A stretch of 64,000 nucleotides of DNA, taken from the NCBI GenBank assembly GCA_010356995.1, contig ML996709.1, forward strand, positions 200,606 to 264,605, in the 5' to 3' direction. The stretch is from Trichodelitschia bisporula. Its lineage: Eukaryota. The notes below the pieces were generated by a model. The model was not told the origin of the DNA. It did not search any database and saw only the letters and a program-made list of their open reading frames with translations. This document shows, piece after piece, positions 26,701 to 55,786 of this stretch; positions within the stretch are counted from its first letter, which is position 1, and the number at the start of each line of letters is the position of its first letter. A program made the translations under genes and the position numbers.

Positions 26701-26836
26701 TCCAGCTTCGAAATGGGTTCTACTTGCGGGTGATGGGAGGGTGCCGCTGGAGAGGATGAGAGAGCTGGCGGAGGACGTAGGCGTTAGGGTCTTGCGGTTT
26801 GGGGAGGTGGCGGAGGGGGTCGGCGTAAGGGACTAG
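23740..26836 (+). CDS. NRDE2: NRDE-2/Nrl1-like (DUF1740) nuclear RNA-processing HAT-repeat protein
   Basis: Short exon MDDNK plus intron 23755-23798, then KSAVPRFASFRPK; FVIDTKGDRDNLTY, YRRIGYGRVLG, PWNIEAWL, FVRDSGYHELAEALWQALLEF, FAEWWDLEGPRIGEIGARGW. Confidence 0.82.
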
Positions 26837-27329: not shown

Positions 27330-28487
27330 TCATTCTACCGCCACTTCGAATGCATCCATGATATGGACGCACAATGAATTAAGACCTTAAGGCAGATATG
27401 GCTACTGAACTAAGGAGCATATTTCATTTGGACGGAGCGCACCACTTGGACAGGGTGCTTGCCAAATGCAGGAGCACGGTCATACTGTACTCCTAACTGA
27501 GGTAAGCACCGCTGACGCAATAATGGAAGGAGCTACGGAGGATATGATGTACATATTTAAGAGCCTCTCGACTCTCTCCTGCTCTTTGTCTTTTAGCAAA
27601 CATTCAGTTTACACCGATGCCGCTGCATGTGTAGAACTAGAGCATTACTCCCAATAATCCAACTCTCTTTCTAAAAGACCTAACTTCAACCCCACTGCCT
27701 CTACCAATATATTCAATTCTTGTTCCAGCTTGTTTACCCTCTTCTGCTGCTCTTGACACGGCTCCCACTTGAGAGAAGAAACAGCTTGGGACAGGCCCAC
27801 CCTCTCGTTGTAGTTTCTTGTCATTTCCAGTAATTGTTCCGCCTTGATTCTTCTCTTCCTCAAGTCCCCTGCTTTTCGCATCGGGCCTTCCAGCAGTAGT
27901 GATCTGCGTTCTCCGAGTTCAGGCTTTTATTCCACATGTTGTGATTGCTCAAGGTCCCAGGCTTCCTTCCCAAGTGGTTGCACTTCCAGCTCTCCTCTGC
28001 AGTCAGCAAGTAGGTTCGGATGGCGGGCTGAGAATGTCGAGTCCGCCGACGCATATTATCGACTGAGAGGAAGTGGGATTTCAACCGCGTCATCAAACGG
28101 GAGGAATATTCCCCTGGGATAGGGGCTGAAGTATGAATCAGCGTTGGAATAGGAGAAGCTGTATTGTTCCAATGGCGGCCAGGGCATTCCGGCCTTTGTC
28201 GAATGTGTCGTCTAGGCACCGTTACAACTAGGATCAGGAAGAGGCACGTTTCCAGCAACCTCACCAGAAAGTGTGTATATCCTGCCAGGGTTGGGGATAA
28301 AGAAGGGACCAGAATTAGAAGAGGGAGCGTTGAACTGGGTCAAAGTCGGCCAGCCCATTGGGACCTCGCGAAAATTATGGTGCAGGCACGGAATTTGATC
28401 CTTGGAGAGGGTGCGCGGGTTCTCAACATGCGTGGCTGATATAGACCCTGATTTGTCGGATTGCAGCTGGACTACAGCTTCGCACAC
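27330..28487 (-). pseudogene. IPLPPSxY-family member 1 (subfamily A), pseudogene interrupted by a solo LTR
   Basis: One frame from 28487 to 27645: GTG-CEAVVQ (ATG in the paralog)...VPLPDPSCNGA*...AVEIPLPLSR*YASADS...HVE*KP...LKLGLLERELD. After the LTR the frame resumes as DAFEVAVE* at ~27356, matching the C-terminus of member 2. Confidence 0.85.
27359..27656. mobile_element. Solo LTR (298 bp) with 5-bp TSD ATCCA
   Basis: atcca|TGATATGG...CTCCCAATA|atcca (TSDs at 27354-27358 and 27657-27661). It splits member 1 precisely and is homologous to 46834-47091. Confidence 0.85.
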
Positions 28488-29295
28488 CGTTGGCTAGGTC
28501 GTGGGGTGGTTGTTGTATGCCTTGATCTTGCTCTTTGCGGGTAGAACTAGATGTTAGACAATGTCGAAGGATAGAATATCTCAATATCACATACGGGGTA
28601 CGTACAGGTCTTCCGAAGCGAATGTCTTGCAAGGCTGCCCAGCAACAAGACGAGGCACTGATACCGACAACGCCGGGTGATGTGCAACGCAGCGGATGGA
28701 GGAGTGTCCTGCCAGCAGCGTGGAGATCGTATATGTGATGAGAAGGGCACTTGTGATAGCGTTGCGGCGGGGGTGTGGTCACTTTAATATATGCCGGCGG
28801 TGGGGGCTGTGCCCAAGGGCTACCTGAAATATCCATGCCTCGCCTGGTCTTTCGACAAGGCTACGCTAGCAGCCATGCCCCGCGTAAAACGGCAGGGGCG
28901 CCACCTGCAAAAGTCGTGGCGGCCCCGGTCCGCAAAGCCGCCCAGGCGGGAGGCCATGAATATTTCAGAAGACCCTTGAGCACAGCCCCACTGCCAACGC
29001 GATAAAGCGACCGCACCCTCGCCGCAGCATCACCACCCGCACTGTTCCCATCACACCTACGATCTCTACGACGCTGTTGGCAAGACACTTCTTCACTCGC
29101 TGTGTCGGACATCATATTACGCTCTCAGTATCAGCACCTCGTCTCGTTGTTCGGCGGCATTGTTAGAAACCGTGCGACAGAAGACCTGTACGTAGCCCGT
29201 ATCTGATACTCAGATTTTCTCTCGTCACATATCGTCTGACATCTACCTGTAAATAGCAGGATCAATCCATAAACAATCCCACGACTCAGCCAACG

Positions 29296-30000
29296 ATGTG
29301 CGAAACTGTTATCCTCACGCAAACTACGCCGACAGGCTCCACATTTACTACGCACATGGAGAAACTGTGCACAAACTCCAATGGCCGAGATCAATGCGAA
29401 CAGCATACCGTTCGGGAGACGACGCAGTTCCCAAAGGAATGGGCCCTGCTCGGCTGGTCCAACGTTTCTCCCTCCAATCCTGATACCTTGGTTGGCCCCA
29501 GGCGTAGCGAGGCATCTACCGTTTTTAATGAGGCGGTTGAAATCCCGCTTCCTCCCAGTCGGTACAATGCGTCGGCGGCGGATTCGATCATGGAAACCGG
29601 GACATCTAGCCCAGTCTTTGGCCGCAAAAGAGATCCGGAAATGCAACCGTTGCGGAAGAGCAACCGGCGCGTCGTGCAGCATGTTGAACGAGAGCCTGGG
29701 CCTAAAATGCCCGAACCGGCACCCATGGAAGATTTTCAGGTAAAACAAGTGTCTTTGGAGGTAAAAAGAATGCGGTTGGAAGCACTGCTGAATGACATGA
29801 GGGACTACGAGGAGAGGCGGGGCCAATCTCAAGAAATATCTGACAAATTGATGTCGTGTCAAAAACAGCAGCAGAAGGTAAAAGACCTGGAAAACGAGTT
29901 GATTCCATTGGTACAGGCTTTGGAATTGAAGTTAGGCCTTTTGGAAAGAGAGTTAGATGCATTCGAGGTGGCGTTGGAGGGATGGTTTGGACTAGTATAA
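29296..30000 (+). CDS. IPLPPSxY-family member 2 (subfamily A), 234 aa: Cys-containing N-terminal module, motif, C-terminal coiled coil
   Basis: Intact ORF MCETV...LCTNSNGRDQCEQH...AVEIPLPPSRYNAS...LELKLGLLERELDAFE; 5'-UTR intron-like segment ~29188-29260 shared with members 1 and 3. Confidence 0.8.
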   Translation: MCETVILTQTTPTGSTFTTHMEKLCTNSNGRDQCEQHTVRETTQFPKEWALLGWSNVSPSNPDTLVGPRRSEASTVFNEAVEIPLPPSRYNASAADSIMETGTSSPVFGRKRDPEMQPLRKSNRRVVQHVEREPGPKMPEPAPMEDFQVKQVSLEVKRMRLEALLNDMRDYEERRGQSQEISDKLMSCQKQQQKVKDLENELIPLVQALELKLGLLERELDAFEVALEGWFGLV

Positions 30001-30469
30001 TGGGCTATGCACGAGCAAATGAACCTGCTTACAGCTCACTTCCCGACCGCTACGCCATTGGACACAACCCCAGCCGAATCAACAAGGCTGTCTAGCAGTT
30101 ATGTCCAACACAGAACGGCCATCGGCCCCGGTCCGCGAAAGCCCGCGGGCAGAAAGGCCATGAACTTTTGGGGTCTGGGGCACAGTCCCACTGCCAGCAT
30201 CTTAAAATGACCACATCCCCACCTCACAGTTACCGTAAGCGCTAATCTCATCACGCATACAATATCTATGGTCCTTCAGCCGTTTTCTAACATTAGACAG
30301 CGTCGTTCTCGTCCGAGCCTCATCCATTGGAAAGGAGCCTTGCCCCAGAACCGTGCGACAAAATATTGGTATGTATCAATACCGGTCTCATTCGCTTCGT
30401 CTCGCATCGACTAACACCTCCTCCGAATGGCAGGACTAAGCTCTACAGCAAGCCCACTCTTAGTTAACA

Positions 30470-31170
30470 ATGTGTCAAGCCACTATCTCACGTACTGTTA
30501 CGGAGGAAGGCCTGCCGCCTCTCGTTACGCGGACAACTAACCTGTGTCCACGCTCCGACGGTCAAAATCTCTGCGATCTGCACCCTCCTCACGAGAGCGC
30601 GGCGGTTTCAGTAACCTGGCCGTCGTCCAACCAGCTCAACTTCCCCTCGGCTGGCTCGCTCCTGTCTTTTAACCCCAACCCTAGCGAGATGTTCACCCCA
30701 TTTGGTGAGGGCGTTGCGATCCCTCTTCCCCCTAGCAGATACGATGCGTCGACGTCAGATTCAACTATAACCTCCGGACTACCCAGCCCACTTGTTGGCC
30801 GCAACCGAGATCTGGAAACGCAACAGGTACATGAGGAAGCCCACGGCTCTGAGCAATCGCAACATGTGGAACAGGAGCCTAAGCCGAGAAACCTTAAACC
30901 CTCACTCTCGGAATATGACCTAAACAGAGCCATATACTTGCAGCAGAGACGAGTAGAGATGCAATGAGTACTGAGTGCGCTGGACACCTTCACAGAGGAG
31001 AAAGGTCGGTTACGAGATGCATATGTTATTTAGTCACGTCGAAAAGATGACTGGATATCACGTCAAAAGCAACCGCCGATGGTAAACAAGATGGAACAAG
31101 AAAACTTCACTCTATTCGGAGAGGCTTTGGAGTCAAAGGCAAAGCTGGATCTTCACCGAAAGGCTGTTAG
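30470..31170 (+). pseudogene. IPLPPSxY-family member 3 (subfamily A), truncated by TGA at 30965
   Basis: MCQATIS...LCPRSDGQNLCDLH...VAIPLPPSRYDAS...EQSQHVEQEPKP. After the stop, a degraded coiled-coil remnant (QKQPPMVNKMEQE, EALESK) parallels member 2. The end is approximate. Confidence 0.75.
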
Positions 31171-32061
31171 AAGAGGTTGAAAGGAAAGTGGGTGAACAGG
31201 CATCGTGCCTGTAAGCTCCTTGAGCCAGGATCTGTTATCTGATATCCATGGTCCGGTTTGTGGATATTGTAAGACCTTTATCTGTAGTAACCTACGTACA
31301 GTCCGAGTTGCTTGCTAGATGAATATATTTCCAAGAGAAATTTGCTCTATAACTAGTAATTAACACACAGTTTCCGATCTCATAGCTTTGACAGGACCAC
31401 CTAAAATAGGCGGTGAAGAACGACTAAACCTCTCAACTCATGCTTTGAAACAGTTGTATTAACCGCTGTTGAGGAGGAGAAGAGCTGGCGAAGAGGACGT
31501 AGCAGTACATCTCACTCCATGACCGCAGCGCTGAGAGCCCGCCCGTCGTCGATGAACAAGCAAAGATGATGCAGAAGCTCGGGCCGTCCCACCTTTCCCC
31601 GCGAACCTACTTTCACGCTAAGCCCTACCTCCTCAGCCGAGGCCTGATTGGGCACAGCCCCAGCCGGGCCGATAAGGCTGTCCCACACAACTCCACCCTG
31701 CAGCCCCAGAAAATTTGTCACACACGTCAAGCTTGGGAAAGAACATCAGCTCCCAACGACGCGAGGAAAATTAACAAGCTTGCTTGGTGTAGCCACAGCA
31801 TCTATTCATACCCCTAAACCGAGTTCATGCGTTTTTCTATCGCCTGTTGTGGTCGTTTTTGTCGTCGTAAACCCTGTCGGTCTGTGACACTTGATATTTC
31901 CTCCCCTGTGGCGGCTTAGGGCGGTCTTGCAAGTTATGGCACAGCCCCATTTCCAACCTGCTATTATTTGGTGCGCACATTCCCCTGGATTGCCTCAAGG
32001 AGTGATTCTTACGCGTTCAATTCGAGCACCGCCTTGCCACGGATCCTACGGCCCCAGCACC

Positions 32062-33250
32062 ATGTCCAAACTCATTATCCGCAACACTGTCACCAACTCA
32101 GGAGCGCAAGCACAAGCTGAGGAAAAGCGACTTGGTGCGCGCTCCGACAGCTTGCATCTGTGCCCTACAGTTAAACGCCTCACCCGGCCCGAATCCTCGA
32201 TAGCTCTTCCATCTGGTCTTGGGTCCACTAGCAGCCCCATCTCTGTCCCTTCTTCCCCGGAAGACACCGTCATGCTTGATGAAGCGGGGGCAATTCCGCT
32301 TCCGCTCAGCAGATTCACCACTCCAGCCTCTACAACGTTGTCGCCTCCTACGGTCGGCCAAGCTCATGAGGGGACAAGGACGCTATCGCCTTCCCTAGCT
32401 CTCAACCCCATTCCCGAGGCGAGAGTAGAAGTACAAGAACAGAAAGATTCAGTTCCGAATAACATCCAACCCAAGTTAGGGAAGGCCAGTGAGCCGGGCT
32501 CCGCGCTTATGCCGACCGTTACCACCTGTTTCATCTGCAAGGCCACCTTTCCCAGCGTCCCGGACTGGCTCAAACACCAAAAAGACTGCCCGTTGCCCGC
32601 CAAAATTGGCCGTTTGCGGAGCAGCCCTCACCCTCCCAGTCGCCCCTTGAAATTCGCCCGGCTCACTGTACCTAAAAAGGGAGTGGTATTTGTCGTCGAC
32701 CACCCCCGCGTTAATGCCACACTCGACCGGTATAACTTGGCTAGCGACGAGGGCGCGCCCGGGCTGCCCCGGACGAGCTTGACGAAGACGACAGCACCTC
32801 TGATGGCACGTTTAGTTCTGGTACCCTCAACTATCCACCTCGCTCGGCTACTGATATGGAATGGCGACTGAGGGATTTAGAACTAGACCTTAAAGTGGAA
32901 GATCAAGAACGGGAATTGTGGAAACGTGAGATCAAAAGACTAAGACGGAGATGGTTCTTAAAGAGGAGACACGCAATACTAGAGCGGAGAGCTCAACAGG
33001 ACATAAACGTAGAGAACACGCATAACCCTGACCTCGTTTTTAATGTCAATTGCGCGAACACGGAAATGGATGAAGTGGAAAGGAAGTCAGCATTCCTGGA
33101 AGACGCGTTAGAAACGGCGTTGAACCATTTGGAACTGCACTTAATAGAAAAAATGGGTAAGCATCGACGCCTATATTGCAGATTTGTTATTCTAACTCCA
33201 CGTTAGGGATGGACGCTTTTGCCGACCGCCATCTACCGATGGGTTTTTAG
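32062..33250 (+). CDS. IPLPPSxY-family member 4 (subfamily A) with C2HC zinc-finger-like motif and coiled coil; probably spliced
   Basis: MSKLIIRNTVT...RSDSLHLCP...AGAIPLPLSRF...CFICKATFPSVPDWLKHQKDC. A phase-0 intron (32668 or 32686 to 32744), or a frameshift, joins the coiled-coil ORF. Intron 33157-33206 (gtaagc...ctaac...tag) gives LELHLIEKMGMDAF, like the member 2 tail. Confidence 0.65.
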
Positions 33251-33593
33251 GGCAGGATTGACTGATGCATCAAGGCAGCGAGGCAGCACGATATCGTTAA
33301 CACGGTGGCATGCTGGAATCATGCCATGACACAATATCAAGTCTTCGGGGCAACGTACGGTATGTTGATAGACCTGAGATTTCTCTCTCAACATCATCAA
33401 TTCAAGCATTCTCTCCAAGCTGTCTCATGCCATAACCCTAATACGGTTGACAGCTTTAGGACTTTGACAATTTCTGTGGCCTTTCTATGCACCTAAGAGT
33501 CTGGCTTTTCGGCTTCTGCAATACATTTCGTACCGTTCCAGCTTCAATATTTGCTTCCATTTCAGCACTAGGAGCCCGCCTGTCACTATTTTC

Positions 33594-34199
33594 TCACCGT
33601 GGAGTTTTACCGAGTAGATGCTCCCACGGCAGCAATAGACTCGGTGGGTCGGAGTGGTACACGGTGCTGCATGCGGGGATCGCGCTAATTGTGCTGACCA
33701 CCATTATTCCGAAGAAAGATGGTCGTTCCTCTTTCTGTAACCATTTCAGTTTGATCCGCACACCTTTCCTTCCTTCCTTTCCACTATGTCTCTCTTGTTT
33801 CCCCTCGAGCACTTCATCCAGCCGGCTCTCGGAGGAAGCAGGGGGAAGTGTCTCAGAGGAAGCAGGGCGAAGAGTGCCTGAGTATACCGACGTGCCCTAT
33901 AAAGACCTCGCATACGCCGATGTTTCGTACACCGATGTCTCTTATGTCGATCTCTCGTCGTTGCTGGGCCATAGCGGAATCTTGAAAGCAGAGTGACACT
34001 CTACCGATGGGTCATAGGAGTGGAAAGACCTCTCATACAACGAGTTCTCGTATGTGGATCCATCGTAGTTGCTGGGCGATAGTGGAATCTCGACAGCAGA
34101 GTGGCACGCATCCAGAAGCGCCGGATTCATGACTCGAATGGCCAGGCTCTCGTATTGCTTCCAAAAGCTGTTGGCGGGGTGCGGGTTCGGGAGAGACAT
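33594..34199 (-). pseudogene. IPLPPSxY-family member 5 (subfamily B), internal motif duplication, two in-frame stops
   Basis: CHSAVEIPLSPSNYDGSTY...CHSAFKIPLWPSNDERST*ETSVYETSAYARSL*GTSVYSGTLR aligns with member 6; its 5' flank 34225-34330 matches 37823-37930. Confidence 0.8.
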
Positions 34200-34644
34200 G
34201 GTCGCAGGCGTTACTAGTCGGAGAAGCTGAAGATGTTTTTCGATGGACAGAATCAGCGGTGATGAGAATTATTCTCACAATTATAGTCGTATGGAGGCAG
34301 CAGAGGATGTGTTTGCGCGAGATGGTGCGGCTCGCAAGCAGAAGTGGGATCGGCTGTGCTTTCGTGTCCGGTAAGCGGGTAAAGTTGGGCAACTTGGAAC
34401 AAGCCCCGCTTTCGGCCCCAGCCTAATGGCTGACCCGACCCTGCGGGCCTTGCCAACTGAACTACCGTCGATCTAGTTCTAAGGTACGGTACCCCGCAAG
34501 CCACTGGGGCGCGGACCTACCAGGGAGTGCCGGGCAGGACAGTTCGCGCCCTGCGAAACCTCACGAATCTCGTTCTAGCTCGACGAACCCTAGACACTGC
34601 CCGACGACGCCCCAACCTCTCAAACAGTACCCGCCCCACCAACC

Positions 34645-35559
34645 ATGCTCTTCCACGTAAAAAAGCTGCTCAAGGGCGCATGGTAGTACAGGTTTTGCGA
34701 TGATATATAAAGAGCTATGATGGTTTTACAACAGTTGCCCGAAACTGCTCGCCATGCGCCTTACCAAGATTATACGCCGGCTGCTTCGTTCATTCCCCGA
34801 TCGAAATAAGGCTACGACCGTCGCAGTCGACGCCAACGCCGACGCCAACTCGCCTAGAGCCTCCAGGCCGAGTAATCTTACTTCCTGCGATACTAGCCCT
34901 GGACCCGAACCGTTAGCCCGCCATGTTGCGTCCGTCGCTGAAATAAGCACAGGTGACATTCCTGTGTCGGAAGGTATAAATCCTACAACGGGTGCTGTCC
35001 CCGTCAGTGTCCTGGATGCGAAGGAGCTTAATGCGGGTACGATCATCATGAACTATTAGACACGCCTGACATTGTACTAGGACTGCCTGCGGTGTCGGAT
35101 TTTGCGCCTCGTGACGATGGTTGGTTGAATGAAGAACCTTGCTCGCCTCTTTATTCCGAGGACGAAGATGATCAGTTGTCCGAAATGACCTCGTCGAACT
35201 CGTCCATATATTCCAGGTCTTCAGTAGGAGCCAAGCGGGCCCGGTTCAAAAGGGGACGAGCAAAGCAGAGAAAACCTGGGATCCGAGTGCTTGAGCGGCT
35301 CAGCTTGCCTCATCAAGGGCCGGTGCAGGAGTTGGAGGCAAAGCCCCTGAGCCGAGAGCAGCGGACAGCCCTCTGGGTGAAAGAACAGCAGACCAGAGAC
35401 TGGTCGGCAAAACAAGCGGCAGAGTTTGAAAGTGACCGGCCTCATTCAACGAGATCTTCCAGACGGCCATCACCTGGGCTGGTCAAGCCGTCGGGGCGTG
35501 CTTCTAGCGAGGAGTCTTCTCCTTGGGAGGATTCTCCCCTCCCATCTGTTTGCGCCTGA
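34645..35559 (+). CDS. Orphan, probably three-exon, Ser/Arg-rich disordered protein
   Basis: Introns 34683-34734 and 35037-35080 (gtacga...ctgac...tag) join ORFs 34754 and 35092 in frame. No family motif or recognisable domain seen. Confidence 0.5.
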
Positions 35560-36161: not shown

Positions 36162-36575
36162 ATGTGCCTATATAGCGTCTTCATAGTGGTCGCCGCCTCC
36201 GGCAAGCGGAGACGAACGGAGGGCTGGGAACTTTGCCGGACTGATGGCCAACGTCTGTGTTCTGGACCTCCCCTGCGAAGCGAGACAATCTACTATCTTA
36301 AGGACCAGGCAGCATATTTTTCCAAGGACGATGCATGCTATTTTCGCAAGGACGGGGCAACCATAAACGACTTTACGCCTCAGCGCATGGAGACCTATGA
36401 CATCGCCTTTCTTCCGATTCCGATCCCAAGTTCTCTGGCAACCCTGCCTCCGAACCCTCGATGAGAATGCTGTATACATGGTAAGGTGGTTTCAATTCCG
36501 CTTCCACTAGCCGTATACACAGGATCGGACACTGAGAGGCTGCGGCCCTCTCTCGCTCTCGTCCAAAGATGAAAC
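36162..36575 (+). pseudogene. IPLPPSxY-family member (subfamily A-like), degraded
   Basis: MCLYSVF...WELCRTDGQRLC (subfamily A Cys module). After TGA 36462-36464 the same frame reads VVSIPLPLAVY, and the DNA ATTCCGCTTCCACTAGCCGTATAC resembles member 7 ATACCGCTTCCACCTAGCCGGTAC. Upstream CAGCC..GATAAGGCTG element at 35964. Confidence 0.65.
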
Positions 36576-37261: not shown

Positions 37262-37795
37262 CTATTCCTTCTTCTTCCCGTTCTTTACATAAAGTGCCAA
37301 CTCCCTTCTTTCCTCCCGATTTAGCAGTGGGGACACGCCATTCTCCACTTTCCCATCGTTAATTTGCAGATCATAGACCGACGGTCTCGTTACTACCGAG
37401 AGCCAACGTCCGGCCATTAATACCCATTGGTCCCACCGACCGCGGCCTCCCGCTCTTTCCCGATTCATGGCCGCGGCCAGTACAGATAGCTGGTCCTCAG
37501 AGAGATAAGAACCAATTGTCGCAGCAGACGAAGAAGGCTGAAGTGCCTCAGTAAAGGAAGAAGAGCGAAGTGTCCCATCAGAGGAAGAAGAGCGAATGGT
37601 CTCAGCATATATCGACGGGTCATATGAAGACCTCGCATAGACCGATGCTTCGTAAGAGGAGCTCTGGTATGACGATCCATCGTAGTTGCTGGGCGGTAGT
37701 GGAATCTCGACAGCAGAGTGGCACTCATCCGGGACGGCGGTTTTGATGATTCGCGTGGTCCGGCCGTTGGCGGGGTACTGGTTTGAGGGAGCCAT
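37262..37795 (-). CDS. IPLPPSxY-family member 6 (subfamily B), intact
   Basis: MAPSNQYPANG...CHSAVEIPLPPSNYDGSSYQSSSYEASVYARSSYDPSIY...; open to the stop at 37262. Confidence 0.75.
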   Translation of the reverse strand: MAPSNQYPANGRTTRIIKTAVPDECHSAVEIPLPPSNYDGSSYQSSSYEASVYARSSYDPSIYAETIRSSSSDGTLRSSSFTEALQPSSSAATIGSYLSEDQLSVLAAAMNRERAGGRGRWDQWVLMAGRWLSVVTRPSVYDLQINDGKVENGVSPLLNREERRELALYVKNGKKKE

Positions 37796-38913: not shown

Positions 38914-39783
38914 ATGTATCCTGAATCGTCGACGGGGCGGTTCTGGGCCTCCTCTCCACCACCTCCGCCTCTACCACCGTTCAGATATGCACGAGCACAT
39001 CAGTTCTCCGGCATCCCCAAAGGCTCCTATCCAGTCAATCTATCTTACAAAGAGGGAATTCAGATACCGCTTCCACCTAGCCGGTACGGTTCGCTGTACG
39101 GTTCAAGTGCTTCCTATAACGACACTTCGTTCTACGGCTCTCGTCCTTCCGATCACGAACCTTCGTCATACCTACATTCTTCACATGCCGTCGGAGCGTC
39201 GAAACCTGCGACAGCAATGCACAAGGCTCTTGAGAAAGCAGGTCTGAATGGAAGAATACGGGCAAAGTGGGGTGGCCTGGTGCCGAGGGCAGGTGTGCCA
39301 GTGCCAATAAAAGAATCAGTAATATCGGGAACATGAGCAGGGAAACAACAATTGGACGGGGAGTCTTTGTCAAAAACGTTTCAAGCACCAAATATTCTAT
39401 GAGAGCGACCAAGATAGGACGGAGAAGTGGAATTGCTGCAAATGGAAGGACTGGAAGTTCTGACCGAGTTAGACGAGCTGGAAGAAATGAGAGTGGTGCA
39501 TCAACAAGATGTAGAATCCAATAGGGTAGTGGAAAATCTGGATGATGGGTGTGACGAAGCGACACCAGAAGCTCTGAAGTCACCGAATCCGGAGAGTCTG
39601 GGACAGGACTGCCGAAAGGCTGAGCAGCCTTATTCAGTGAAGGTCAGCATGGGATTTGAAGGGCCAGAACTAGAGAAGCGGGATGAGCACCGTGAGCCAG
39701 GAGGGCAGTTCGGGCTACTGCTGGGGGTCTCCACCGAAAGATTCGCTAGCCAAATCTGTTGGACGGATTCCCATTTATTATAG
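38914..39783 (+). pseudogene. IPLPPSxY-family member 7 (subfamily C), three in-frame stops
   Basis: PPPPPLPPFR...PVNLSYKEGIQIPLPPSRYGSLYGSSASY...GT*...IL*ERPR*DGEVELLQMEGLEVLTELDELEEM aligns with member 8 ILREQRERDGEVERLGVLDELTDLSEM in a single frame. Confidence 0.8.
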
Positions 39784-40766
39784 CCTTCTGATATTGTAAG
39801 TTCCTGTATCACTTCGGGCTCGGTATCTTTGTAGCCGGTGTCCGTTAGCGCTCGGGATTGCTTACCTCCGTTGTCTTGTTTCATCGTATCTTTGGCTCGA
39901 CACCACTCCTGTTTCATATTTCCTATATAGTACGAGTTGCCCACATGGTACACTCGACAGTTCAGTCTAGGTCAATCAACAGAAACCTTTGTTTCATCTG
40001 TTCTCAGCTTCTCCAGTCCAACAAAATCCGACCAAGGGAGCAGTTCCGCGCAATGTAAAGTCACGAGGCTGAAAAGCACATCCGGCAGATATTTCCGACG
40101 GCTATTGTGGTATCTGAGCTTCCAGCCCGCTCCTGCGTTGTCGACTTCGAGGCCTGGCAGGAGAGAGAGCACATAATGTCCCGGAGATCCGAGATTGAGA
40201 ACCGTTTGAGAGGATGGATTTCGTTCCGATATTACCCGGCTCCGGAAGTCATTGGCCATATGGCCGTCAGGTGAAAGACGGGGTTTAGGACAACAGCGAG
40301 CTTGCTAGGGAGCTACAATCAAAATTTCGGAGCTCTAGATACCGTCGGATGGGAAAGGTCATTCGTATCTGCCGGCGTCGCGATATCTTATCCAGCCTTG
40401 TCATCTACGTGGACCGGTAACCTTAGCCATTCTCAAATGGCTCCTTCAATGCGCATTCCAAACTGGGAATGCTCAGCAATACCACGGTTTTCTGCAGCCC
40501 GATAAGTTCCATGACCGCGCCTCGGAGACTACAGCGAGAGGGCTGGCAAGGCTATCGCCCGGTCATCTTTGCGGACGGGAGTTCAAGGACCCCCTGCCCG
40601 CGCCTACGCAGCCATTGGTCACAGTTGCAGTGCGCTAGGCCAGCCTGCGCATTTACCCCTCGCTGCAGAAACACGGCCCCGCTGTCAGCCCAGCTTACAA
40701 CATCATTTTCTCCACTTCATCACCGCAAGATTTCTCACTACGCTCGCTTCAGAAACAGTCGAAGAG

Positions 40767-41780
40767 ATGGATCAGACGGCGTACCTTAACCAGTTGGTCG
40801 ATTCGCTCCGGGTATCACCTCCTGAACCGCCCCCGCCTCTTCCTCCACCCAGAGACCCACTATCGCGCCTGCCCCCCTGCACCTCCGCACTACGGCAGCC
40901 AGCCCGCTCTAGAACTCTACTTCAGGACCCGGCATTTTCCCCACCACAGAAACCAGCCTTTGCCGGAGCTTCGGATGGCAGCTCCAAAGCCCCGAACCCA
41001 TTCCATCCAGCAACAACGCGAGAGATGGAACTGATGGAACTCACCATGACTCTCAGTCAATTGGCCGATTTGTTCCGGGCTCCATCTCCAAAAGCGCCCC
41101 CGCCTCTACCACCGCCCAGGGACGCACTACCGCATGAGCCAAGCAGCATCTCCACATCGTGGAAAAGGACTTTCGCCCGACTTTCGGACGACCACGTCAA
41201 ACCCTCTGACCCTGTCTCTCTGTCTTTTGTTGAGGGGACTGGCATACCGCTCCCGCCGAGTCGGTACGGCTCGTTGTACGCTTCTAGTTCTTCCTACTGT
41301 GGCGATGACGACTGGTTGTACTCGCGCTCTTCATCTTACATCCGGGCTTCAGAGCCCGGCGCACCGTCTCATCTAGCCGGAGCATCGTCTCCCCTAGCAC
41401 GTGGGAAAGCGGGCGATATGGACGATGAAATCTTTGCAGTCTTTGCGGAATCAAAAGAGCAGCCGGTGGTGCAAGGAATAGGAGTTTTGGGACGACAAAC
41501 AGAGGTGAAGCCTTTGCTAGGGAGTTCTCTGTTCTCAGAGATTTTAAGAGAGCAGAGAGAACGAGATGGTGAAGTTGAAAGATTGGGAGTGCTGGACGAG
41601 CTTACAGACCTGTCCGAGATGGCAGAGAAGCCGCAAGAAATTCCCGATGGTGGAAGGGCTGAGCAGCAAAGCCCAGCAACGTTTGGCTTGGAGCGGTGGG
41701 AGGAAGCGGCCACGGCGCTATTGATATATCTCTTCTTCCTTCTCTTCTTCGTATCACTGGGATATGAAGTGGTAAACTAA
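40767..41780 (+). CDS. IPLPPSxY-family member 8 (subfamily C), intact, with C-terminal hydrophobic (tail-anchor-like) segment
   Basis: Two PPPLPPPRD repeats, PVSLSFVEGTGIPLPPSRYGSLYASSSSY, and C-terminal ALLIYLFFLLFFVSLGY. Confidence 0.78.
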   Translation: MDQTAYLNQLVDSLRVSPPEPPPPLPPPRDPLSRLPPCTSALRQPARSRTLLQDPAFSPPQKPAFAGASDGSSKAPNPFHPATTREMELMELTMTLSQLADLFRAPSPKAPPPLPPPRDALPHEPSSISTSWKRTFARLSDDHVKPSDPVSLSFVEGTGIPLPPSRYGSLYASSSSYCGDDDWLYSRSSSYIRASEPGAPSHLAGASSPLARGKAGDMDDEIFAVFAESKEQPVVQGIGVLGRQTEVKPLLGSSLFSEILREQRERDGEVERLGVLDELTDLSEMAEKPQEIPDGGRAEQQSPATFGLERWEEAATALLIYLFFLLFFVSLGYEVVN

Positions 41781-42346
41781 TTGCTAATAATCTCTTCCTT
41801 GCTTTGATGCAGCATCGAACAGTTGTCGATTTAAATCCGGACACCCAATAGCGGGGTATCCACTCATGCCGCCCTAGGGAAAAGCTTAGCAACCCCGTGT
41901 ATTACTTTACCGGCAGCCCGATAAGTGTTTAGCCGCAGCTTGGTGGACACAACCCAGGGTAGCGGGAGAGACACGAGCTACCATCCATGTGAAGGCTGCT
42001 CCCGCTCGCCGTTGAGACAAGAAGTAGCGTGGCTGGCAGGGTTGCGGTACACCACCCACCCCTAGCCCGCACAGCCTTTTCATGCCAGACTAAGATCTCT
42101 GGAGCAACCCGAAGGATCCTGGCCTCCCCCCGCCTAGGCGTATTTGCGGATCGGGTTGGTCACGACTCTTTCGGATGGCCCTCGGCCGCAGTTATGGTGA
42201 GCAAGGCTGCGTACGATCCGAATTAATCTAAACCCATGCCTCGCGCTAAAGCACAGCCCCTCTGGCAGCTGAAGTTTAAACGACGTCTTCCCCAACTCAT
42301 CACTGCGAAAAATTCTCTTTACCTTCTTTCAGAGACAACGCAAGAG

Positions 42347-43428
42347 ATGAATTACCCGATGAACTCCAATAACGCAGTCGATGGGCGCTTGCCATCTCTA
42401 CCAAAACTGCTTACATCTCCACTTCCGCCCAGGCCAGCATCACCGCTTCTGTTCCCCGCATCTCCTTCGCACTTTGGTACAGCACGTAAACCGCAGGCTT
42501 TGATAACAGCTTCATTGGCTCCAGGAACAAGGTAGGATGTTACAGGATAGCCAGTGTGGTAGGCACGTGGGACACGTGAGAGATCCAGCAGTTACCAGAT
42601 CAGGCAGGATGTGGTCTATGCTTGGTGTTGAATTTGTGGCGGCAACCTGGGGTGGCTGGAGTGGAGCCAGGAGACAGGGGTTGTCTCCTGGTGAGGTATA
42701 TAGTCAGCTCACTTCCCACTGCTGGTCAGTCAAGCAACTCAGTCAAGTTCACACTTCATTTTAACACTTGGCATCAGCCTTCGCACAGGCCACCTCCCAC
42801 AGTAGATAGCTTAGCTGGAGAGCTTCACTCTCAATCCCCAGTCATCCCTGACCTTACCGCTACAGAGTCCACGTTGCATTCAGCATACTGTGACACGTTA
42901 TCCGTGCTCGGACCCCCTTTCTTCTCTCACGCTGGAAATCACAACACCATCGGCTATGACGACAGCATGTTGGCCTATGGCGACAGCATATTGGCGGAGG
43001 CGCGCGAAATACCACTGCCATCTAGCTGCTATGGATCGGGATACAGCTCGAAGGCCTCGTCGGGCCCCAGGCACTACCCGTATAAGATTAGACGCCGGGT
43101 TGCGGACAGAATGAGGGTGGGAGCAAGGGTAGAGGTGGAGGAAGTCATAAACCAAGAGTATATACAGCCTCAAGAGAGGGGGAGAAGAGATACCGAACGG
43201 CTTGCACATGTAGAGGAGGCGGAGGTGGAGGGAACGGAGGTGGAGGAACCAGAGGAGGACGAAACGGAGGAGGAAGATGAGGAGGTGGTAGAGATGGAGG
43301 AGGCGGAGGTGGAGGAGGCGGACGCGGAGCAGGCGAAGGAGACGGAGGCGGAGGAAGCAACCGATCAAGAATATATGGAGTCTCAAGAGACGGCGGGAGA
43401 GCAAAAAGAATGGCTAGCGAAGTTATAG
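42347..43428 (+). pseudogene. IPLPPSxY-family member 9, interrupted (~42500-42895), Glu-rich C-terminus
   Basis: The 5' leader matches members 7 and 8 (CATCACYGYRA...CAGARACA...ATG). N-terminus SPLPPRP, stop at 42533-42535, then ILAEAREIPLPSSCYGSGY and a poly-Glu tail. Splicing that rescues it cannot be excluded. Confidence 0.6.
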
Positions 43429-43766
43429 AAGTCGGAGAGGATGAGGGTGGCTTACTGTTACAGGTATTGGCTGGGTTTTTATGCTCGTAACTTAACTTCT
43501 ACCTGATGTACTGTGGCATAAAGCTCTTAGCTTAATCCGATCTATGATGCAAATTCCTTTGGGTTGCTGAAAAGCTGATATCAGTTTCTGCGCCCATTTG
43601 TATGCCCCATCTGCTGTTTCCACCACGCGGTGGCACAAATGAGCCGCATAAAGCTGGTGTTGGCGGGGTCGAAAGGACCACCCCAGTAGTTCCCCCATCA
43701 TCAGCCCTTCCTCGGACTAGTACAACTCCTCTTACTTCTCATCTGATCCATCCGCAATTCTTCATC

Positions 43767-44762
43767 ATGAATCCGTCAGCGATGGGTGGTGGCTCTCCCT
43801 CCCCACGGCACAGCCGACCTTCGGCGTCCACACCGTCGGAATGGCGTATCCCACTGTCACCGACTACAAGCAGCGCGCCTCATATTCCTTACGTTGCCCG
43901 ATGGATCAAAAATACGGCGTCCGCAGTCCACCTTCCTCTCCCTGTGCACGATGGGGACCGCAACACCGCAGGCTCGGGCGATAGCACGTCATCCGAGGCT
44001 CGTGAGATTCCGCTCCCGCCTAGCAATTATGACGGATCGATGTACCAATCGACGGCAACCTGGAACAAGAGCTCGGTATACTCGCGTGTACGAAGCTTCT
44101 GTGGTCGAGCACCGTCTACGTGTACGAGCATACCGAGCTGCTGTGGTCGAGCACCATCGGCGAATGCGAGTATACCGAGCTGCTGTGGTCAGTCACCGTC
44201 GGTGTATGCGAGTACGACGCGCTTCCCGCTGGCGACTCAGAATGCTATGAATCTGGGCGGCTTTACGGACAACGTGCCTATGGCACAGGAGGCAAATTTG
44301 GAGAGGGAAAAATCACTGGAATTGCTGTCCTGGCTGATCTGGCTTCAAGGCATTCTACAAAACATGCGGGCAGCGTTGGTGCCGGCGCGGAGCACGCAAG
44401 ACACAAGGCGGGCGCAGCAGCTGGAGTGGCTGATACAGAAGACGAAGTTGATGAAGCACGATGTAAAGGAGATGCAACAGATGGAGGGACGGTTCAAGAA
44501 CGATGTTTTGCTGGAATGGCTTAATAATATGCTGCGAGTATTGAAGGGAGACCTAGCTGAGGCCCGGGGGCGACTTCGGGCTGTGCGGGCGGAGATGGGA
44601 AGGGGTGAGGGAGATCCTACGGAACAGCTAAGGCTGGAAGTGGACTTGAAAGTTGAGATCAAAAACCGGGAATCTTTGTTGGCGGCCTTTGAAAGAAGGA
44701 AGCAATGTGTCAAAAAAGAGAAGGGAGTAAACAGACTTGCAAAGATGCTAGGTTGGGTGTGA
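43767..44762 (+). CDS. IPLPPSxY-family member 10 (subfamily D), intact, WLxWL helices plus coiled coil
   Basis: MNPSAMGGGSPSP...SEAREIPLPPSNYDGSMY, 14-aa CGRAPS repeats, LSWLIWLQG...LEWL...LEWL. Confidence 0.78.
   Translation: MNPSAMGGGSPSPRHSRPSASTPSEWRIPLSPTTSSAPHIPYVARWIKNTASAVHLPLPVHDGDRNTAGSGDSTSSEAREIPLPPSNYDGSMYQSTATWNKSSVYSRVRSFCGRAPSTCTSIPSCCGRAPSANASIPSCCGQSPSVYASTTRFPLATQNAMNLGGFTDNVPMAQEANLEREKSLELLSWLIWLQGILQNMRAALVPARSTQDTRRAQQLEWLIQKTKLMKHDVKEMQQMEGRFKNDVLLEWLNNMLRVLKGDLAEARGRLRAVRAEMGRGEGDPTEQLRLEVDLKVEIKNRESLLAAFERRKQCVKKEKGVNRLAKMLGWV
44099..44215 (+). repeat. 42-bp coding tandem repeat (~2.7 copies, CGRAPSxxxSIPSC)
   Basis: ctgtggtcgagcaccgtc...gagcataccgagctg is repeated at 42-bp spacing. 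Confidence 0.8.
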
Positions 44763-46209
44763 TGCCGCTATGAGCTGCCTGAGCCGTGGGGAATTGCCAG
44801 CGTGGTTGATTCGACTGGCGTTTTGTCTCGTTCGGCGGGAGGACATAATTGGTGGTCTTGTTGAAGGTGTAGTGGCATCTTATCCATTTCGATATGGATC
44901 CTGAGACCGGCAATTGCCGACATGAATGTACCTGTTACTAAACATCCTCCACCACACCCCTACACCGTGGCTGTGTTTGGCTTTACCATCCTCTTCCTCT
45001 CTTTCCTCTGCATCTGATATTTACAATCATCCATCTGCATCCAGAGTTTTGTGCACACTTGCAGTGACCGTGACAAGAGGAGAACAAGCAGACACTCAAA
45101 ACGTTACAGTTGGACCTATCAAGATGGGCAAGGTCGGAGCCGGCAGTCAGAGCGGAACTCAGGATACGACAGGCAAAAGTTGCTAGAAACATACAACAGA
45201 TAGAAGCAGCACTAGGCTAGCGGGCTTCAAAAATTTACGAACGGCACGGAAAGATGGGGAGGCGACGCAAAAAGGGCAAATGCCATTCGCATTTTGAGAA
45301 AGTACCGGAAGCAACTTGAAACTGTGCGGTCGAAGCTCCAGAAATTGGAACTAGGGATTATGGGGGCCATTTTCAGAGCGGAACTCGAGACAAAAGAGCA
45401 AAAATCGCTGCCGAAGGGAGATTGTATAGAGAAAATGCTGACGGCTTTGGAATCTGAACCTCAGGTCTTAAGGAGAAAGGGATGCAATTTAGTCTTAGCT
45501 AGAGATGATAACATCGGCTACTACCGACAAGAATGTATCTAGCACTATTCCCAAACATATTCCTCGTTAACAGACTTACCAGACCTCAAAAGCCTCTCTC
45601 ACGTTTAAACCCGCCCGTCAAGGCGACTCCATTTGGTACACATCCAGCAAGACCACCAGATCATACCCCGCCGAGCAATCCACAACGCAAGCCTCAGCCA
45701 GCCGCATAAACGACGTCACCAACCACCCATCTCATCCAAACCACGCCGTCAGCCTCTACTCCACCAAGAACCACCTATTACTAACCTTAGTCGTACCCGT
45801 CCCGCCCGAACATCGCTGCCAGAGTCAGGGCAAGGGTGAGTCTGTGGCGAAGAGGGAGAGCCTATGTGCTGGATGATCAGGGTGCGTGCGGGCAGGCCGG
45901 TACGGACGGGCTGGTGTGGGTAGGGTAAACTCGGACCAGGGATTATGCCCAGATAATACGGTAGGAGATATGTTGCAAGTTCATTCAATTCCTTTGCGTA
46001 GCTGCGAGCTAGTGTCAGTTCTTGAGGATCAGGTTAACCCTGCACATTCAATTTTCTTTTTCCACTGTGTGGCTGTGTAAGGTTAATTCAGCCGCATAAG
46101 GCTGGTGTTTGCGGGGTCGGACGAGACAGCCACAACAACTGTCACCCATCGCCGCACACCAGTGGACCTTCCTTACTTTTCATCCGATCAAACCACGCAC
46201 TCCCTCATC

Positions 46210-46833
46210 ATGACCCCGTTAGTGATGGAGGGTGGCTCTTCCTCCCCGCATGGCCGGCCTCCGACCTCGAGGCCCCTGCCCCCCCCACCGGCCTTCGACC
46301 CCGAGCATCGCGATGCGGTAGGCAACATTTACGGTAGACGGAGGAAATGCCGGGAATTATACTGCAGCAGAGGCGGTTGGAAATGGAGGCGTGGCTAGAT
46401 TGGCTTGGACCTATGCTTGTTTTAGCGAAGAAGACGGAGAAGAGATGGCCGCGTTCGCCGTTGGTACGGTGTAGGAGTTGGACGGGGATCATGGAGGTAA
46501 AGTGGGGGATGTTAGTTCTATTGCTTAGAAAAAATGGTCAGAAGCCAGAAATCCTACTTCTAGAAGAAAGGTTGGTGTGGCTCGGTGAATACGAGAAGCT
46601 GACAGAGCTATTGGCGGAGGACCTGCGTGAGATGGAGACAGGGTTTCGAATTGTCCGGCAGATGTGGCGGAGGGATAAGAGGATTGCTGGATCTGATGGG
46701 ACCTAGAGAGCGGCACTGGCGAGAGATGTGATGGTGTTGCAGGACGACGTGGATATCCTGGAAGGGTTACTGGCGACTTTCAAAGCAAGACTGCGAAGTC
46801 AGAACGAAGAGACAAGACAGTGGGAGGGACTTT
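46210..46833 (+). pseudogene. Family member 11 (subfamily D), frameshifted, motif region lost, 3' end hit by a solo LTR
   Basis: MTPLVMEGGSSSPHGRP resembles the member 10 start; EAWLDWLGPML resembles member 12 EWLHWLGLML; shared upstream element at 46089. Confidence 0.7.
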
Positions 46834-47091
46834 TGATGTGGGCACACAAGGCATCGAGGCATCAAGACAAGCATGGTTACTTGCGGAGTATAATATCTTA
46901 GGAAGCAGCGTATGACCCTGAGTTGGGGTGCATGCCGATGGCAGGCACCGCTGACCTAGCGAGGGAAGAAGGTATGGGGGGATATGGTGTACATATTCCA
47001 GTGTGCCTCTCGACTCTCTTCCGTTTATTGTCTTTAGCAAACAATCAGTTTACACAGATGCCGTTGCATATGCAGAAAGTTGCTCCCAATA
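46834..47091. mobile_element. Solo LTR (258 bp) with 5-bp TSD ACTTT
   Basis: acttt|TGATGTGG...CTCCCAATA|acttt (TSDs at 46829-46833 and 47092-47096); the 3' ~160 bp clearly align with the LTR at 27359-27656. Confidence 0.85.
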
Positions 47092-47522
47092 ACTTTAGCC
47101 CACCTAATCACACCTCAAGGTTTATCCAAATTTATCAAGTGTGAGAACGGATGAAGATTTGGAGCTGGTACCGTGATTAGACAGGAGGAAGTATACATGT
47201 ACGGGTGGCATCAAGGAAATTTGAGTTGTGATAGTTCTTCCCGGTCCACAGACCTGTTCGTGCCGGGCACAGCGCGAGTACCAAGGGCCGGCCCGAAGAA
47301 ACCCACCTACCGGCTCGTGCCGCCCACTGGTGCAACGCCAAGCCCCCCCGCATCTTGTAGAACTAAGGGTTCAGCCGCACAAGGCTGGCGCTGCGGAATC
47401 GAACGAGACGACAACAACAACAGTCACCATCGCCGCCTACTAGTACAACGCGCCTTACCTCTCCTCCGGTCGCGCCCCGCTCTCTCTCATCATACTCATC
47501 CCTCGCCACAATCCCATTCGTG

Positions 47523-48497
47523 ATGGAGAGTGATGTCTCCCGCGCTCCGCAGCGCCGATATCCCCTCCCTTCACTCCCGCCAGCCCCACTCCTGTCCGAC
47601 CAGTTCACGCTCCCTCTCAACAGCTCCGTGGATGCTGACAATGGGCTTCTAGCGGAAGCGCGCGAGATACCACTCCCGCCGAGCCACTACGGATCGACAT
47701 ATACGGCGACGACGCACCACTACAGCTCGACGTATGCATCTACGGCACACTACTCATCGGCGACACGGGGTTCAGTCCGCCGGGTTTTTTTTGCGGGCGG
47801 TGTAGGGGAGCCGCAGGAAATAGTGACACGGGGTTCAGTTCGCCGGCGTTTTTTTACGGGTGGTGTGGGGGAGCCGCAGGAAAGAAGGGAGAGGGAGCGG
47901 CTAAATGTAGCTTGGAATAAGAGGCAGAGAAAGAAAATGACGGGACTAGAGAGACAGAGAAAGACTAGGGAGTGGAAAGAGATGCGGAGCGAAGAAACGA
48001 AAAGGACGGAGGGGTTGGGAGAGGAAGTGAAGGGGCTACTAAGGCAGGAAAAGGAAAGGGAACGGCTGGGGAAGATGTTTGGGAAGAAAGAGTGGCTACA
48101 CTGGCTTGGACTCATGTTGGATTGTGCATGTGCGATGCAGATGACGATATGGGGCGAGATGGGGCTGAACTGGCCGCAACTTCAGCTCCAGTGGCTGACG
48201 CGGACGATGCAGATGATGCAGGAACTGGACGGGCAGACGATGGGGAGAGAGCAGAAAGGGGTTCTGAAGCACCTTCACGGCGCGCTAGAGCTTTACGTGC
48301 ATGTGCAGGGGGAGCTGCTAACGCACTTTCGAGGGTTTCGGTGGAAACAGCGGGTTAAGAGGTTAGGGGCGTGTGTGGTGAAGAGCGACATAAAGGCATG
48401 GGAGTTAGAGCAGAACTTAATAGCCTTGAACACGTTACAGGAGGCCTTCAAAGCACGGAAACAGAATCTGGAAAGAGAACTCAAAGCGCTGCGATAG
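47523..48497 (+). CDS. IPLPPSxY-family member 12 (subfamily D), intact
   Basis: LLAEAREIPLPPSHYGSTYTATTHHYSSTY, a 63-bp internal duplication (47762/47825), charged coiled coil and WLHWL...QWL helices. Confidence 0.78.
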   Translation: MESDVSRAPQRRYPLPSLPPAPLLSDQFTLPLNSSVDADNGLLAEAREIPLPPSHYGSTYTATTHHYSSTYASTAHYSSATRGSVRRVFFAGGVGEPQEIVTRGSVRRRFFTGGVGEPQERRERERLNVAWNKRQRKKMTGLERQRKTREWKEMRSEETKRTEGLGEEVKGLLRQEKERERLGKMFGKKEWLHWLGLMLDCACAMQMTIWGEMGLNWPQLQLQWLTRTMQMMQELDGQTMGREQKGVLKHLHGALELYVHVQGELLTHFRGFRWKQRVKRLGACVVKSDIKAWELEQNLIALNTLQEAFKARKQNLERELKALR

Positions 48498-55715: not shown

Positions 55716-55786
55716 GGATGACATTGAGGTCACTGCGGGACGTAGGGTTAGGACAGGCGCAAGAACAAAATGCATTAATTCCCTTT

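Follow-up and report, generated by a model that had tools for sequence, protein, structure and literature searches.

We analyzed a stretch of 64,000 nucleotides from contig ML996709.1 of the dung fungus Trichodelitschia bisporula (GenBank assembly GCA_010356995.1, positions 200,606 to 264,605 of the forward strand). This whole stretch is called the window below, and all coordinates refer to it. An island at positions 27330-48497 holds most members of a real, undescribed and taxonomically restricted family of predicted proteins, with no fewer than 14 paralogs, of which 13 lie in the window and another is found outside it on the same contig. What unites them, one motif-less copy apart, is a short peptide, IPLPPS-x-Y, which has been kept by selection on the peptide while its surroundings diverged beyond alignment. 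Our favored explanation, held tentatively and with slightly more doubt than belief, is that the motif serves as the docking site for one conserved putative reader, that the paralogs act as modular adaptors or competitors, and that the family has grown by old local duplications.

The motif was searched for by a six-frame regular-expression scan of the 64-kb window. With the tight pattern IPL[PS][PLS][SA].[YF*], 12 matches were found within the island (Table 1) and 0 across the other 43 kb, and all 12 peptides claimed by an initial annotation of this DNA were recovered. When the island was shuffled 300 times with its dinucleotides preserved, matches averaged 0.003 with a maximum of 1, compared with the 12 in the real sequence; this comparison had been fixed beforehand as one that could overturn the claimed enrichment. 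A profile (A1), built from an alignment of 68-residue windows centered on the ten stop-free motif copies, also picks up the two most decayed copies, psi-28079 (E=8.7e-5) and psi-36495 (E=0.077), and gave no match below E=1.9 in the rest of the window outside the island. All copies read P-[PLS]-[SA]-x-[YF*] at the end of the motif. The wider context consists of a hydrophobic residue followed by E-A/G-x-E upstream and of [GD]-[SGA]-S-x-Y downstream of the motif Tyr, giving the family consensus h-x-E-A-x-E-IPLPPS-x-Y-[GD]-[SG]-S-x-Y.

At the nucleotide level, the motif is not uniform. The Ile codons at the invariant site are ATC in 3 copies, ATT in 5 and ATA in 4, the first Pro is encoded by CCA (5), CCG (6) or CCT (1), and all four CTN codons are used for Leu (CTT 6, CTA 2, CTC 3, CTG 1). 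Since the codons vary synonymously, selection is on the peptide and not on the DNA, and given this free variation, neither gene conversion nor a DNA or RNA element accounts for the motif. In the island as a whole, no 11-mer or 12-mer recurs four or more times and only two 10-mers recur five times. In addition, all three broken copies that bear the motif depart from IPLPPS.Y (IPLPLSR*, IPLSPSNY and IPLPLAVY), compared with two of the nine copies with an open reading frame (ORF), C and G. Codon usage and decay in the broken copies thus both bear out the earlier proposal of one retained motif.

Two residues of the motif invite a different explanation, in which it is mainly a post-translational modification site: phosphorylation of the Ser, or of the Tyr/Ser-rich stretch, for example, would control condensation or turnover, and the low-complexity region and coiled coil would form assemblies. 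The motif Ser is invariant and always encoded by an AGY codon. The Tyr is almost as constant, and three residues past it another Ser is conserved. A Ser/Tyr-rich low-complexity run follows the motif in subfamilies 2-4 (defined below), and repeats of the [S/G]-Y-[S/G] type occur downstream of the motif in D, E, F, H, I and the paralog outside the window, P0010. The casein kinase 2 consensus is S-x-x-[DE], and the S-x-Y-D found in 5 of 12 copies fits it. However, no kinase consensus fits all copies, and a modifying enzyme would also have to recognize the flanking I-P-L-P, so that this reading overlaps with docking and does not replace it. We consider it unlikely that modification is the main role of the motif.

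Both tblastn and BLASTP support the four positional subfamilies described previously, which are linked to each other almost exclusively via the motif region. Subfamily 1 comprises psi-28079 (minus strand), A, B and C (27.6-33.2 kb), subfamily 2 psi-34088 and D (both minus strand, 33.7-37.8 kb), subfamily 3 E and F (38.9-41.8 kb), and subfamily 4 G, H, J and I (43.0-48.5 kb); psi-36495 was assigned to none of them. Identity is 27-46% within subfamilies, and matches between them are limited to the motif region. Similarly, phmmer searches of nine C-terminal parts against the six-frame pieces of the island returned only self and same-subfamily matches. The motif-less paralog noticed near 46210 is real: it is J, which is collinear with residues 3-78 and 235-373 of H. 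The earlier estimate that about half of the copies are pseudogenes is roughly right. Full-length ORFs are present in five members (A, D, F, H and I), four (B, C, E and G) keep the motif in ORFs that a stop or frame change interrupts or that fall short of the nearest paralog in length, and four copies are broken (psi-28079, psi-34088, psi-36495 and J). The copies psi-28079 and A form a head-to-head inverted duplication about a center at approximately 28.9 kb (self-match 28474-29309, an 870-bp alignment with 68.5% identity), which takes in the upstream regions with their mirrored intron-like joints at 28533-28605 and 29188-29256.

To estimate the age of the duplications, synonymous divergence (dS) and the ratio of nonsynonymous to synonymous divergence (dN/dS) were calculated by the Nei-Gojobori method on tblastn alignments; the values are near saturation and are averages over the whole length. 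The pair A/B gave a dS of 1.01 and a dN/dS of 0.63, A/psi-28079 0.79 and 0.64, D/psi-34088 0.76 and 0.63, and E/F 1.2-1.4 and 0.29-0.36. The best DNA identity between any two copies is 75-77%. These values show that the duplicates are old and under relaxed constraint, and at whole length, individual sites aside, they show no sign of positive selection.

This bears on the interpretation first proposed for the island, fast birth-and-death under conflict-like evolution. The locus would then be one of genetic conflict (meiotic drive with suppressors, allorecognition or the like), with rapid turnover of copies and a motif that binds a contested host factor. A species-restricted family of many copies, four of them broken and four truncated, that is inserted between housekeeping genes and extremely divergent outside one motif has a profile of this kind: the Spok genes of Podospora, the wtf genes of Schizosaccharomyces pombe and the het and NOD-like receptor (NLR) clusters are likewise lineage-restricted, multi-copy and mixed with pseudogenes. 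Spok is a large protein with nuclease-like and kinase domains, and wtf is a multi-pass membrane protein. In contrast, the island has neither such domains nor the multi-pass topology of known drivers, and there are no recent near-identical copies in it: with a best identity of 75-77% and dS of 0.76-1.4 within subfamilies, fast birth-and-death is not borne out, and duplicates of this age do not demonstrate conflict-driven turnover. Nor does a dN/dS of 0.29-0.64, which does not exceed 1 although it is a saturated whole-length average, bear out conflict-like evolution. No HET, NACHT, HeLo, Goodbye, kinase or nuclease domain was detected by Pfam in or beside the island. A driver of the Spok or wtf type was rejected for want of such domains (Pfam), the F tail being the one hydrophobic segment in the family, and an allorecognition or NLR-associated gene was rejected because neither island nor flanks contain a HET, NACHT, HeLo or Goodbye domain. 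Furthermore, no other genome of the order is among the named matches, so that the orphan status of the family may reflect phylogenetic isolation combined with fast-evolving disordered sequence. A conflict locus is therefore quite unlikely.

Profile A1 was compared with 5.8 billion proteins (longer lengths, E<=10), and all 6 matches were window proteins; the whole H protein had no relative at E<=0.01 in the same number of proteins (near lengths). Among 1.84 billion representatives, profile A1 matched 11 proteins at E<=1e-3, seven of which are from T. bisporula, all on one contig. The 11 matches are six window proteins, P0010, the repeat proteins P0008 and P0011, and the tandem-peptide proteins P0007 and P0009. 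P0010 is a 269-aa E/F-like paralog carrying FNEATEIPLPLSRYGSSYAY, on the same 349,038-bp contig outside the window. P0008 (a Cryptomeria repeat protein) and P0011 (a short ENA repeat) were rejected as chance matches amplified by internal repeats. As far as the searched collections show, the family appears private to T. bisporula. The claim of a lineage-specific paralog array is thus upheld, with no clear relative outside the species among the 1.84 billion representatives, and its description as an island needs one amendment: 13 copies lie there, but the family is not confined to it, as P0010 demonstrates. In the searchable text of the literature, PLPPSRY and IPLPPSRY had no match, EIPLPP and IPLPPS occurred once each in unrelated papers, and the papers found to name T. 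bisporula are taxonomy or genome-survey papers. The term "PLPPS motif" occurred once in the same text, for the primate NPIP family, which is a coincidence of letters (PMC7419210).

Searches for known domains were equally negative. Pfam gave no match at the gathering score for the 13 family ORFs at E<=1, with only two sub-threshold chance matches, and none of 125 stop-to-stop pieces of at least 75 aa from both strands of 26.8-49 kb matched at E<=0.01, in agreement with the original statement that the island has no recognizable conserved gene. Neither transposase nor reverse transcriptase domains were found by Pfam in island or flanks, nor integrase domains among the island pieces. An origin from a transposable element was rejected, since there is no such domain, self-similarity does not exceed 77% except for one 59-bp internal repeat, and there is no footprint of repeat-induced point mutation (RIP). 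The RIP indices across the island (TpA/ApT 0.62-0.92; (CpA+TpG)/(ApC+GpT) 1.10-1.33) are like those of the flanks. A described family or a protein derived from a transposable element, another outcome that had been named as refuting, was accordingly not found with Pfam, self-similarity and RIP indices. Rfam and tRNA scans of the island found nothing. A PDB sequence search with the motif profile returned only a chance ferredoxin match (E=0.52). In the ESM Atlas, the best feature score for I was 0.76, which is chance level (rows with Goodbye and DUF7708 scored 0.75-0.76), and F had no usable feature match; the structure rows all had a template modeling (TM) score <=0.33. Fungal genomes often contain tandem gene families of restricted taxonomic range, which mostly stay annotated as "hypothetical"; this one is undescribed, but as a tandem family of disordered proteins with a narrow distribution it belongs to a familiar kind.

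AlphaFold2 models of I and A were generated from single sequences without alignments. In the I model, residues 1-118, including the motif (49-56), have no secondary structure and a low predicted local distance difference test (pLDDT) score, and six helices follow at 119-323 (mean pLDDT 51). The A model has weak strands at 2-38, a low-confidence region without secondary structure at 39-144, which includes the motif (83-90), and a single helix at 145-233 with a pLDDT of 82-96 (mean of the model 63). When two copies of A residues 140-234 were modeled together, they formed an antiparallel pair with an interaction prediction score from aligned errors (ipSAE) of 0.32, compared with 0.00 for the best control; contacts coincide between runs to 98% or more, and the pLDDT of the partner is 75 or higher. 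The mark for this pair score is reached by 21 of 30 proteins solved as same-chain pairs and by none of 23 solved as single chains, and for eukaryotic proteins by 17 of 29 pairs and none of 30 singles, but by only one of seven without an older solved relative. The pair model supports self-binding of A without demonstrating it.

The two modeled members have one layout in common, a disordered N-terminal half with the motif and a helical C-terminus. By sequence, the other members follow it, being composed of the motif, a Ser/Tyr-rich low-complexity stretch and a subfamily-specific charged region, and this C-terminal region looks helical by eye. Further proline-rich stretches precede the motif in E, F, P0010 and I; those of E, F and P0010 are of the PPPLPPPR type, and F has PPPLPPPRD twice. 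A simple Kyte-Doolittle scan found no N-terminal hydrophobic segment in any member, which argues against a secreted effector family with a signal peptide. Strong hydrophobicity is confined to one segment of F, residues 314-332 out of 337 (hydropathy 2.36), which reads as a membrane tail anchor.

Contigs from two sequencing runs of one sample in one study, presumed to be RNA, were aligned on window positions 28498-48497. They cover A (29013-30119), D (37010-37998), F (40695-41807), H (43695-44599) and I (47404 to beyond 48497), as well as E plus its downstream part in an unspliced contig (38914-39896); the segments 31166-31832, 33167-36501 and 41838-42504 are without cover, which is not evidence of silence. 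The contigs hold eight joints that skip 50-73 bases. Four of them are GT..AG joints on the plus strand (29187>29257, 30234>30301, 30367>30433 and 42723>42777), which fall upstream of the plus-strand genes A, B and G. Three are CT..AC joints (28532>28606, 38336>38401 and 45730>45786), and the eighth, 45735>45786 (CC..AC), is an alternative call in the other run at the 45730>45786 site. Since these intron-like joints resemble those of spliced transcripts, at least several members are probably transcribed, and in the sense direction. The check for transcription of the intact ORFs thus points to probable transcription of several of them, on the presumption that the runs are RNA.

Contigs at 38175-38833 and 45483-46010 with CT..AC joints (38337-38400 and 45731-45785) indicate spliced transcripts of the minus strand that diverge from E and J. 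Their longest open frames are 98 and 86 codons, without a family match; they may represent D leaders or divergent transcripts that do not code for protein. An element at the 5' side of H, J and I, CCGCAYAARGCTGG (Table 1), may be a shared promoter or leader element. In I it sits just upstream of the contig start, whereas in H the long ORF includes it, so that H may in reality begin at the following in-frame Met (43767). Two segments, 42626-42766 and 39800-40024, are noted separately: word depth rises to approximately 20,485, many different loose ends occur at either side, and several letters vary, which looks as though the segments were also present in other abundant RNAs or genomic loci. The first contains a perfect 11-bp hairpin at approximately 42666-42692, with no Rfam match and a fold z-score of -0.9.

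It has also to be asked whether most members have any function at all. They could be drifting young or orphan genes with little or no function, the motif being the slowest-decaying remnant of an ancestral sequence. Values of dN/dS up to 0.64, the four truncated and four broken copies, and models of A and I that show no folded domain beyond helices are all what such drift would produce. With dS near 1 within subfamilies and saturated between them, however, a neutral stretch of eight residues would not stay identical while its synonymous sites vary; the motif does decay in broken copies, and several members are covered by contigs with intron-like joints. We regard drift as very unlikely to account for most of the family.

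A peptide similar to the motif is present in other fungal proteins. For the tail of P0009 (residues 440-608), 744 candidates yielded 67 relatives at E<=1, and the named ones are all from Sordariomycetes (among them Lecanicillium, Beauveria, Neonectria, Fusarium, Colletotrichum, Thermothielavioides, Chaetomium, Hypoxylon and Pochonia). Several are named "VOC domain-containing" or "Glyoxalase family" protein in their source, and five members of this family had no Pfam match at E<=0.1. Their layout is a conserved N-terminal domain, one transmembrane segment, a long disordered tail and a C-terminal APSDSISC[IV]GS. By regular expression, 134 tandem units were found in 53 of the 67 relatives, with 1-6 per protein near the C-terminus and a consensus of [ST]-[YH]-[VI]-S-A-R-[NDH]-[VI]-P-L-P-x-S-[R..]-[VA]-[GP]-[ST]. 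A profile of 124 distinct Sordariomycete units ranked island copies as the eight best of 2133 six-frame window pieces (best E=0.008). P0007, an unrelated protein, has four tandem copies of SLFEEARNVPLPASV, which is intermediate between the island motif and the Sordariomycete unit. No match was found in the searched literature for SARNVPLP, SARDIPLP, SARNIPLP, SARDVPLP or APSDSISC.

Like the island proteins, the P0009 family has a disordered region with the core A-R-[DEN]-[IV]-P-L-P-x-S, often followed by Arg, and within that family the motif is clearly conserved. In contrast to them, it has a transmembrane segment in mid-protein, which a hydropathy scan found in no island protein, and its units carry Val or Ala at +7, where the island has the near-invariant Tyr. 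BLASTP found no similarity beyond the motif, and the resemblance spans 9-10 residues. The island proteins are not homologs of this family and at most carry the same ligand; the Sordariomycete units are a lead that unrelated fungal proteins use the same ligand class, not a sign of homology.

Two proposals build on this likeness. One is that family members are competitors or decoys that titrate or redirect the reader of the AR[DN][IV]PLPxS repeats in the conserved VOC-named membrane-protein family. Its basis is the core A-R-[DEN]-[IV]-P-L-P-x-S common to subfamily 4 (AREIPLPPS) and the Sordariomycete units (for example, SARDVPLPPSR), together with the intermediate form in P0007. We give it little credence, as the likeness covers only 9-10 residues and was found via the island's own profile, the island Tyr is replaced by Val or Ala in the Sordariomycete units, and the membrane-protein family, whose named members are from Sordariomycetes, may be absent from T. 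bisporula. The other proposal is broader: AR[DEN][IV]PLPxS would be an undescribed linear motif of filamentous ascomycetes, recognized by a conserved domain and presented in tandem copies by a widespread membrane-protein family, and the island, as a private and diversifying array of coiled-coil proteins, some soluble and some tail-anchored, would have captured this ligand to redirect or titrate its reader. This, too, is unlikely.

We return to the explanation favored here, docking to one conserved putative reader. The island would have expanded between its two housekeeping neighbors by tandem and inverted duplications, both local and old, and the disordered N-terminal half of each protein would bear one short linear motif that docks the reader. 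The likeliest reader would be a module that recognizes proline-rich ligands, for instance an SH3 or WW-type domain. As modular adaptors or competitors, the paralogs would link the reader to different C-terminal modules, the variable helical C-termini serving self-association (A) or different destinations (the membrane, in the case of the F tail anchor). Conservation of a similar core in a Sordariomycete membrane-protein family is a hint of a conserved reader. The SH3 ligand consensus is +xPhiPxPhiP for class I and PhiPxPhiPx+ for class II. As in SH3 ligands, the island core is a polyproline-II-type sequence in a disordered region; the class II form is matched by the IPLPPSR-type sequence in 7 of 13 motif copies (A, B, C, psi-28079, E, F and P0010), and the class I form by REIPLPP in H and I. 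In the island copies outside class II, the "+" position is taken by N, H, C or V. PPxY and LPxY are the ligands of WW domains in Rsp5/Nedd4-type ligases, and in the island, too, a Tyr that looks essential comes after Pro-Pro within disordered sequence.

Several observations weigh against this explanation. The basic residue required by SH3 domains is absent in subfamily 2 (AVEIPLPPSNY) and not conserved family-wide, and the invariant Ser and near-invariant Tyr of the island lie outside the SH3 consensus. The WW ligand [LP]PxY was rejected, since the spacing PPSxY is one residue too long in all copies. The reader stays putative. The members are predicted proteins, and the RNA nature of the sequencing runs, both from one sample, is a guess. 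The truncation of B, C, E and G relative to their nearest paralogs suggests that part of the family may be decaying. With regard to the models, confidence is low overall (mean pLDDT 51 and 63) and low pLDDT is not proof of disorder; the pair score of A just equals the mark, and coiled coils are readily paired by such modeling. Finally, the comparison with Sordariomycete units is in part circular, since it was a search with the profile of the island itself that led to P0009, and the spurious P0008 and P0011 scored similar E-values in that search.

The coordinates of the family members, the shared DNA element and the nearest flanking genes are given in Table 1. For gene B, two stops interrupt the region homologous to the C-terminal helix of A, and the public model of gene C is P0006 (EJ06DRAFT_570471, hypothetical protein [Trichodelitschia bisporula]), a spliced model of 257 aa at 32062-32868.

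Table 1. Members of the IPLPPS-x-Y family in the window, a DNA element shared by three of them, and the genes flanking the island
Feature	Position	Strand	Motif site	Description
NRDE-2 family gene, left flank	24329..26836	+		PF08424, E=1.9e-68
psi-28079, broken A-like copy	27648..28487	-	28079	IPLPLSR*, stop at the Tyr position; further in-frame stops; tblastn of A 32% over 281 aa
Gene A, 234 aa, intact	29296..30000	+	29542	EAVEIPLPPSRY at residues 83-90; GT..AG joint 29188-29256 upstream of ATG
Gene B	30470..31147	+	30719	165-aa ORF 30470-30967, IPLPPSRY; two GT..AG joints upstream, 30235-30300 and 30368-30432
Gene C	31936..33206	+	32293	ORF 31936-32871, AGAIPLPLSRF; helical ORF 32856-33206 next, in another frame
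psi-34088, broken D-like copy	33699..34199	-	34088	IPLSPSNY, then a decayed second IPLWPSN; several stops; tblastn of D 32% over 182 aa; DNA identity 75-76%
psi-36495, motif remnant	36465..36569	+	36495	IPLPLAVY flanked by stops; detected by profile A1
Gene D, 177 aa, intact	37262..37795	-	37705	AVEIPLPPSNY, then Ser/Tyr-rich stretch
Gene E	38914..39783	+	39064	140-aa ORF 38914-39336, IQIPLPPSRY; F-like C-terminal part 39442-39783 past a stop
Gene F, 337 aa, intact	40767..41780	+	41244	Two PPPLPPPRD stretches, TGIPLPPSRY, Ser/Tyr-rich stretch, C-terminal hydrophobic segment
Gene G	42967..43428	+	43009	153-aa ORF beginning just before AREIPLPSSCY; acidic C-terminus; GT..AG joint upstream, 42724-42776
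Gene H	43602..44762	+	44007	386-aa ORF (331 aa from next in-frame Met, 43767); AREIPLPPSNY; helical C-terminus with EWLxWL-like repeats
J, motif-less H-like copy	46050..46811	+		Motif-bearing middle deleted; frame changes; in-frame stop at 46704
Gene I, 324 aa, intact	47523..48497	+	47667	AREIPLPPSHY, motif at residues 49-56
DNA element CCGCAYAARGCTGG	43644-43657, 46092-46105, 47375-47388	+		5' side of H, J and I; 3 matches compared with 0.02 expected
Right flank gene	48766..51373	-		Upstream exon 51002-51373 with weak Dsc3_N/ubiquitin matches, E ~1e-4, below the curated cut-off

The genes on both flanks are ordinary core or housekeeping genes, and the G+C content of the island is 51-55%, compared with 58-64% in the flanks. 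The left flank otherwise contains genes for DnaJ, dipeptidyl peptidase IV, DENND11 and Utp10. Further to the right are genes for phosphatidylserine decarboxylase, a short-chain dehydrogenase, cerato-platanin, two AA9 proteins, SRP19, an aspartyl protease and a DEAD-box helicase, and the cerato-platanin gene is clustered with the two AA9 (lytic polysaccharide monooxygenase) genes at 55352-57935. A tRNA-Ser (GCT) gene is located at 15700-15783, and 36 bp of it (15748-15783) are repeated at 12222-12257 with 92% identity.

About a dozen paralogs that have diverged beyond alignment but share one peptide of 8-12 residues under clear purifying selection point to a functional element. If the shared-ligand proposal is true, the island would be a natural library of adaptors or decoys for one signaling or trafficking hub, and if the same domain also reads the Sordariomycete core, this would be a new motif-reader pair across filamentous ascomycetes. 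Otherwise, the array would still be a clean example of a short linear motif as the sole stable part of a fast-evolving disordered family.

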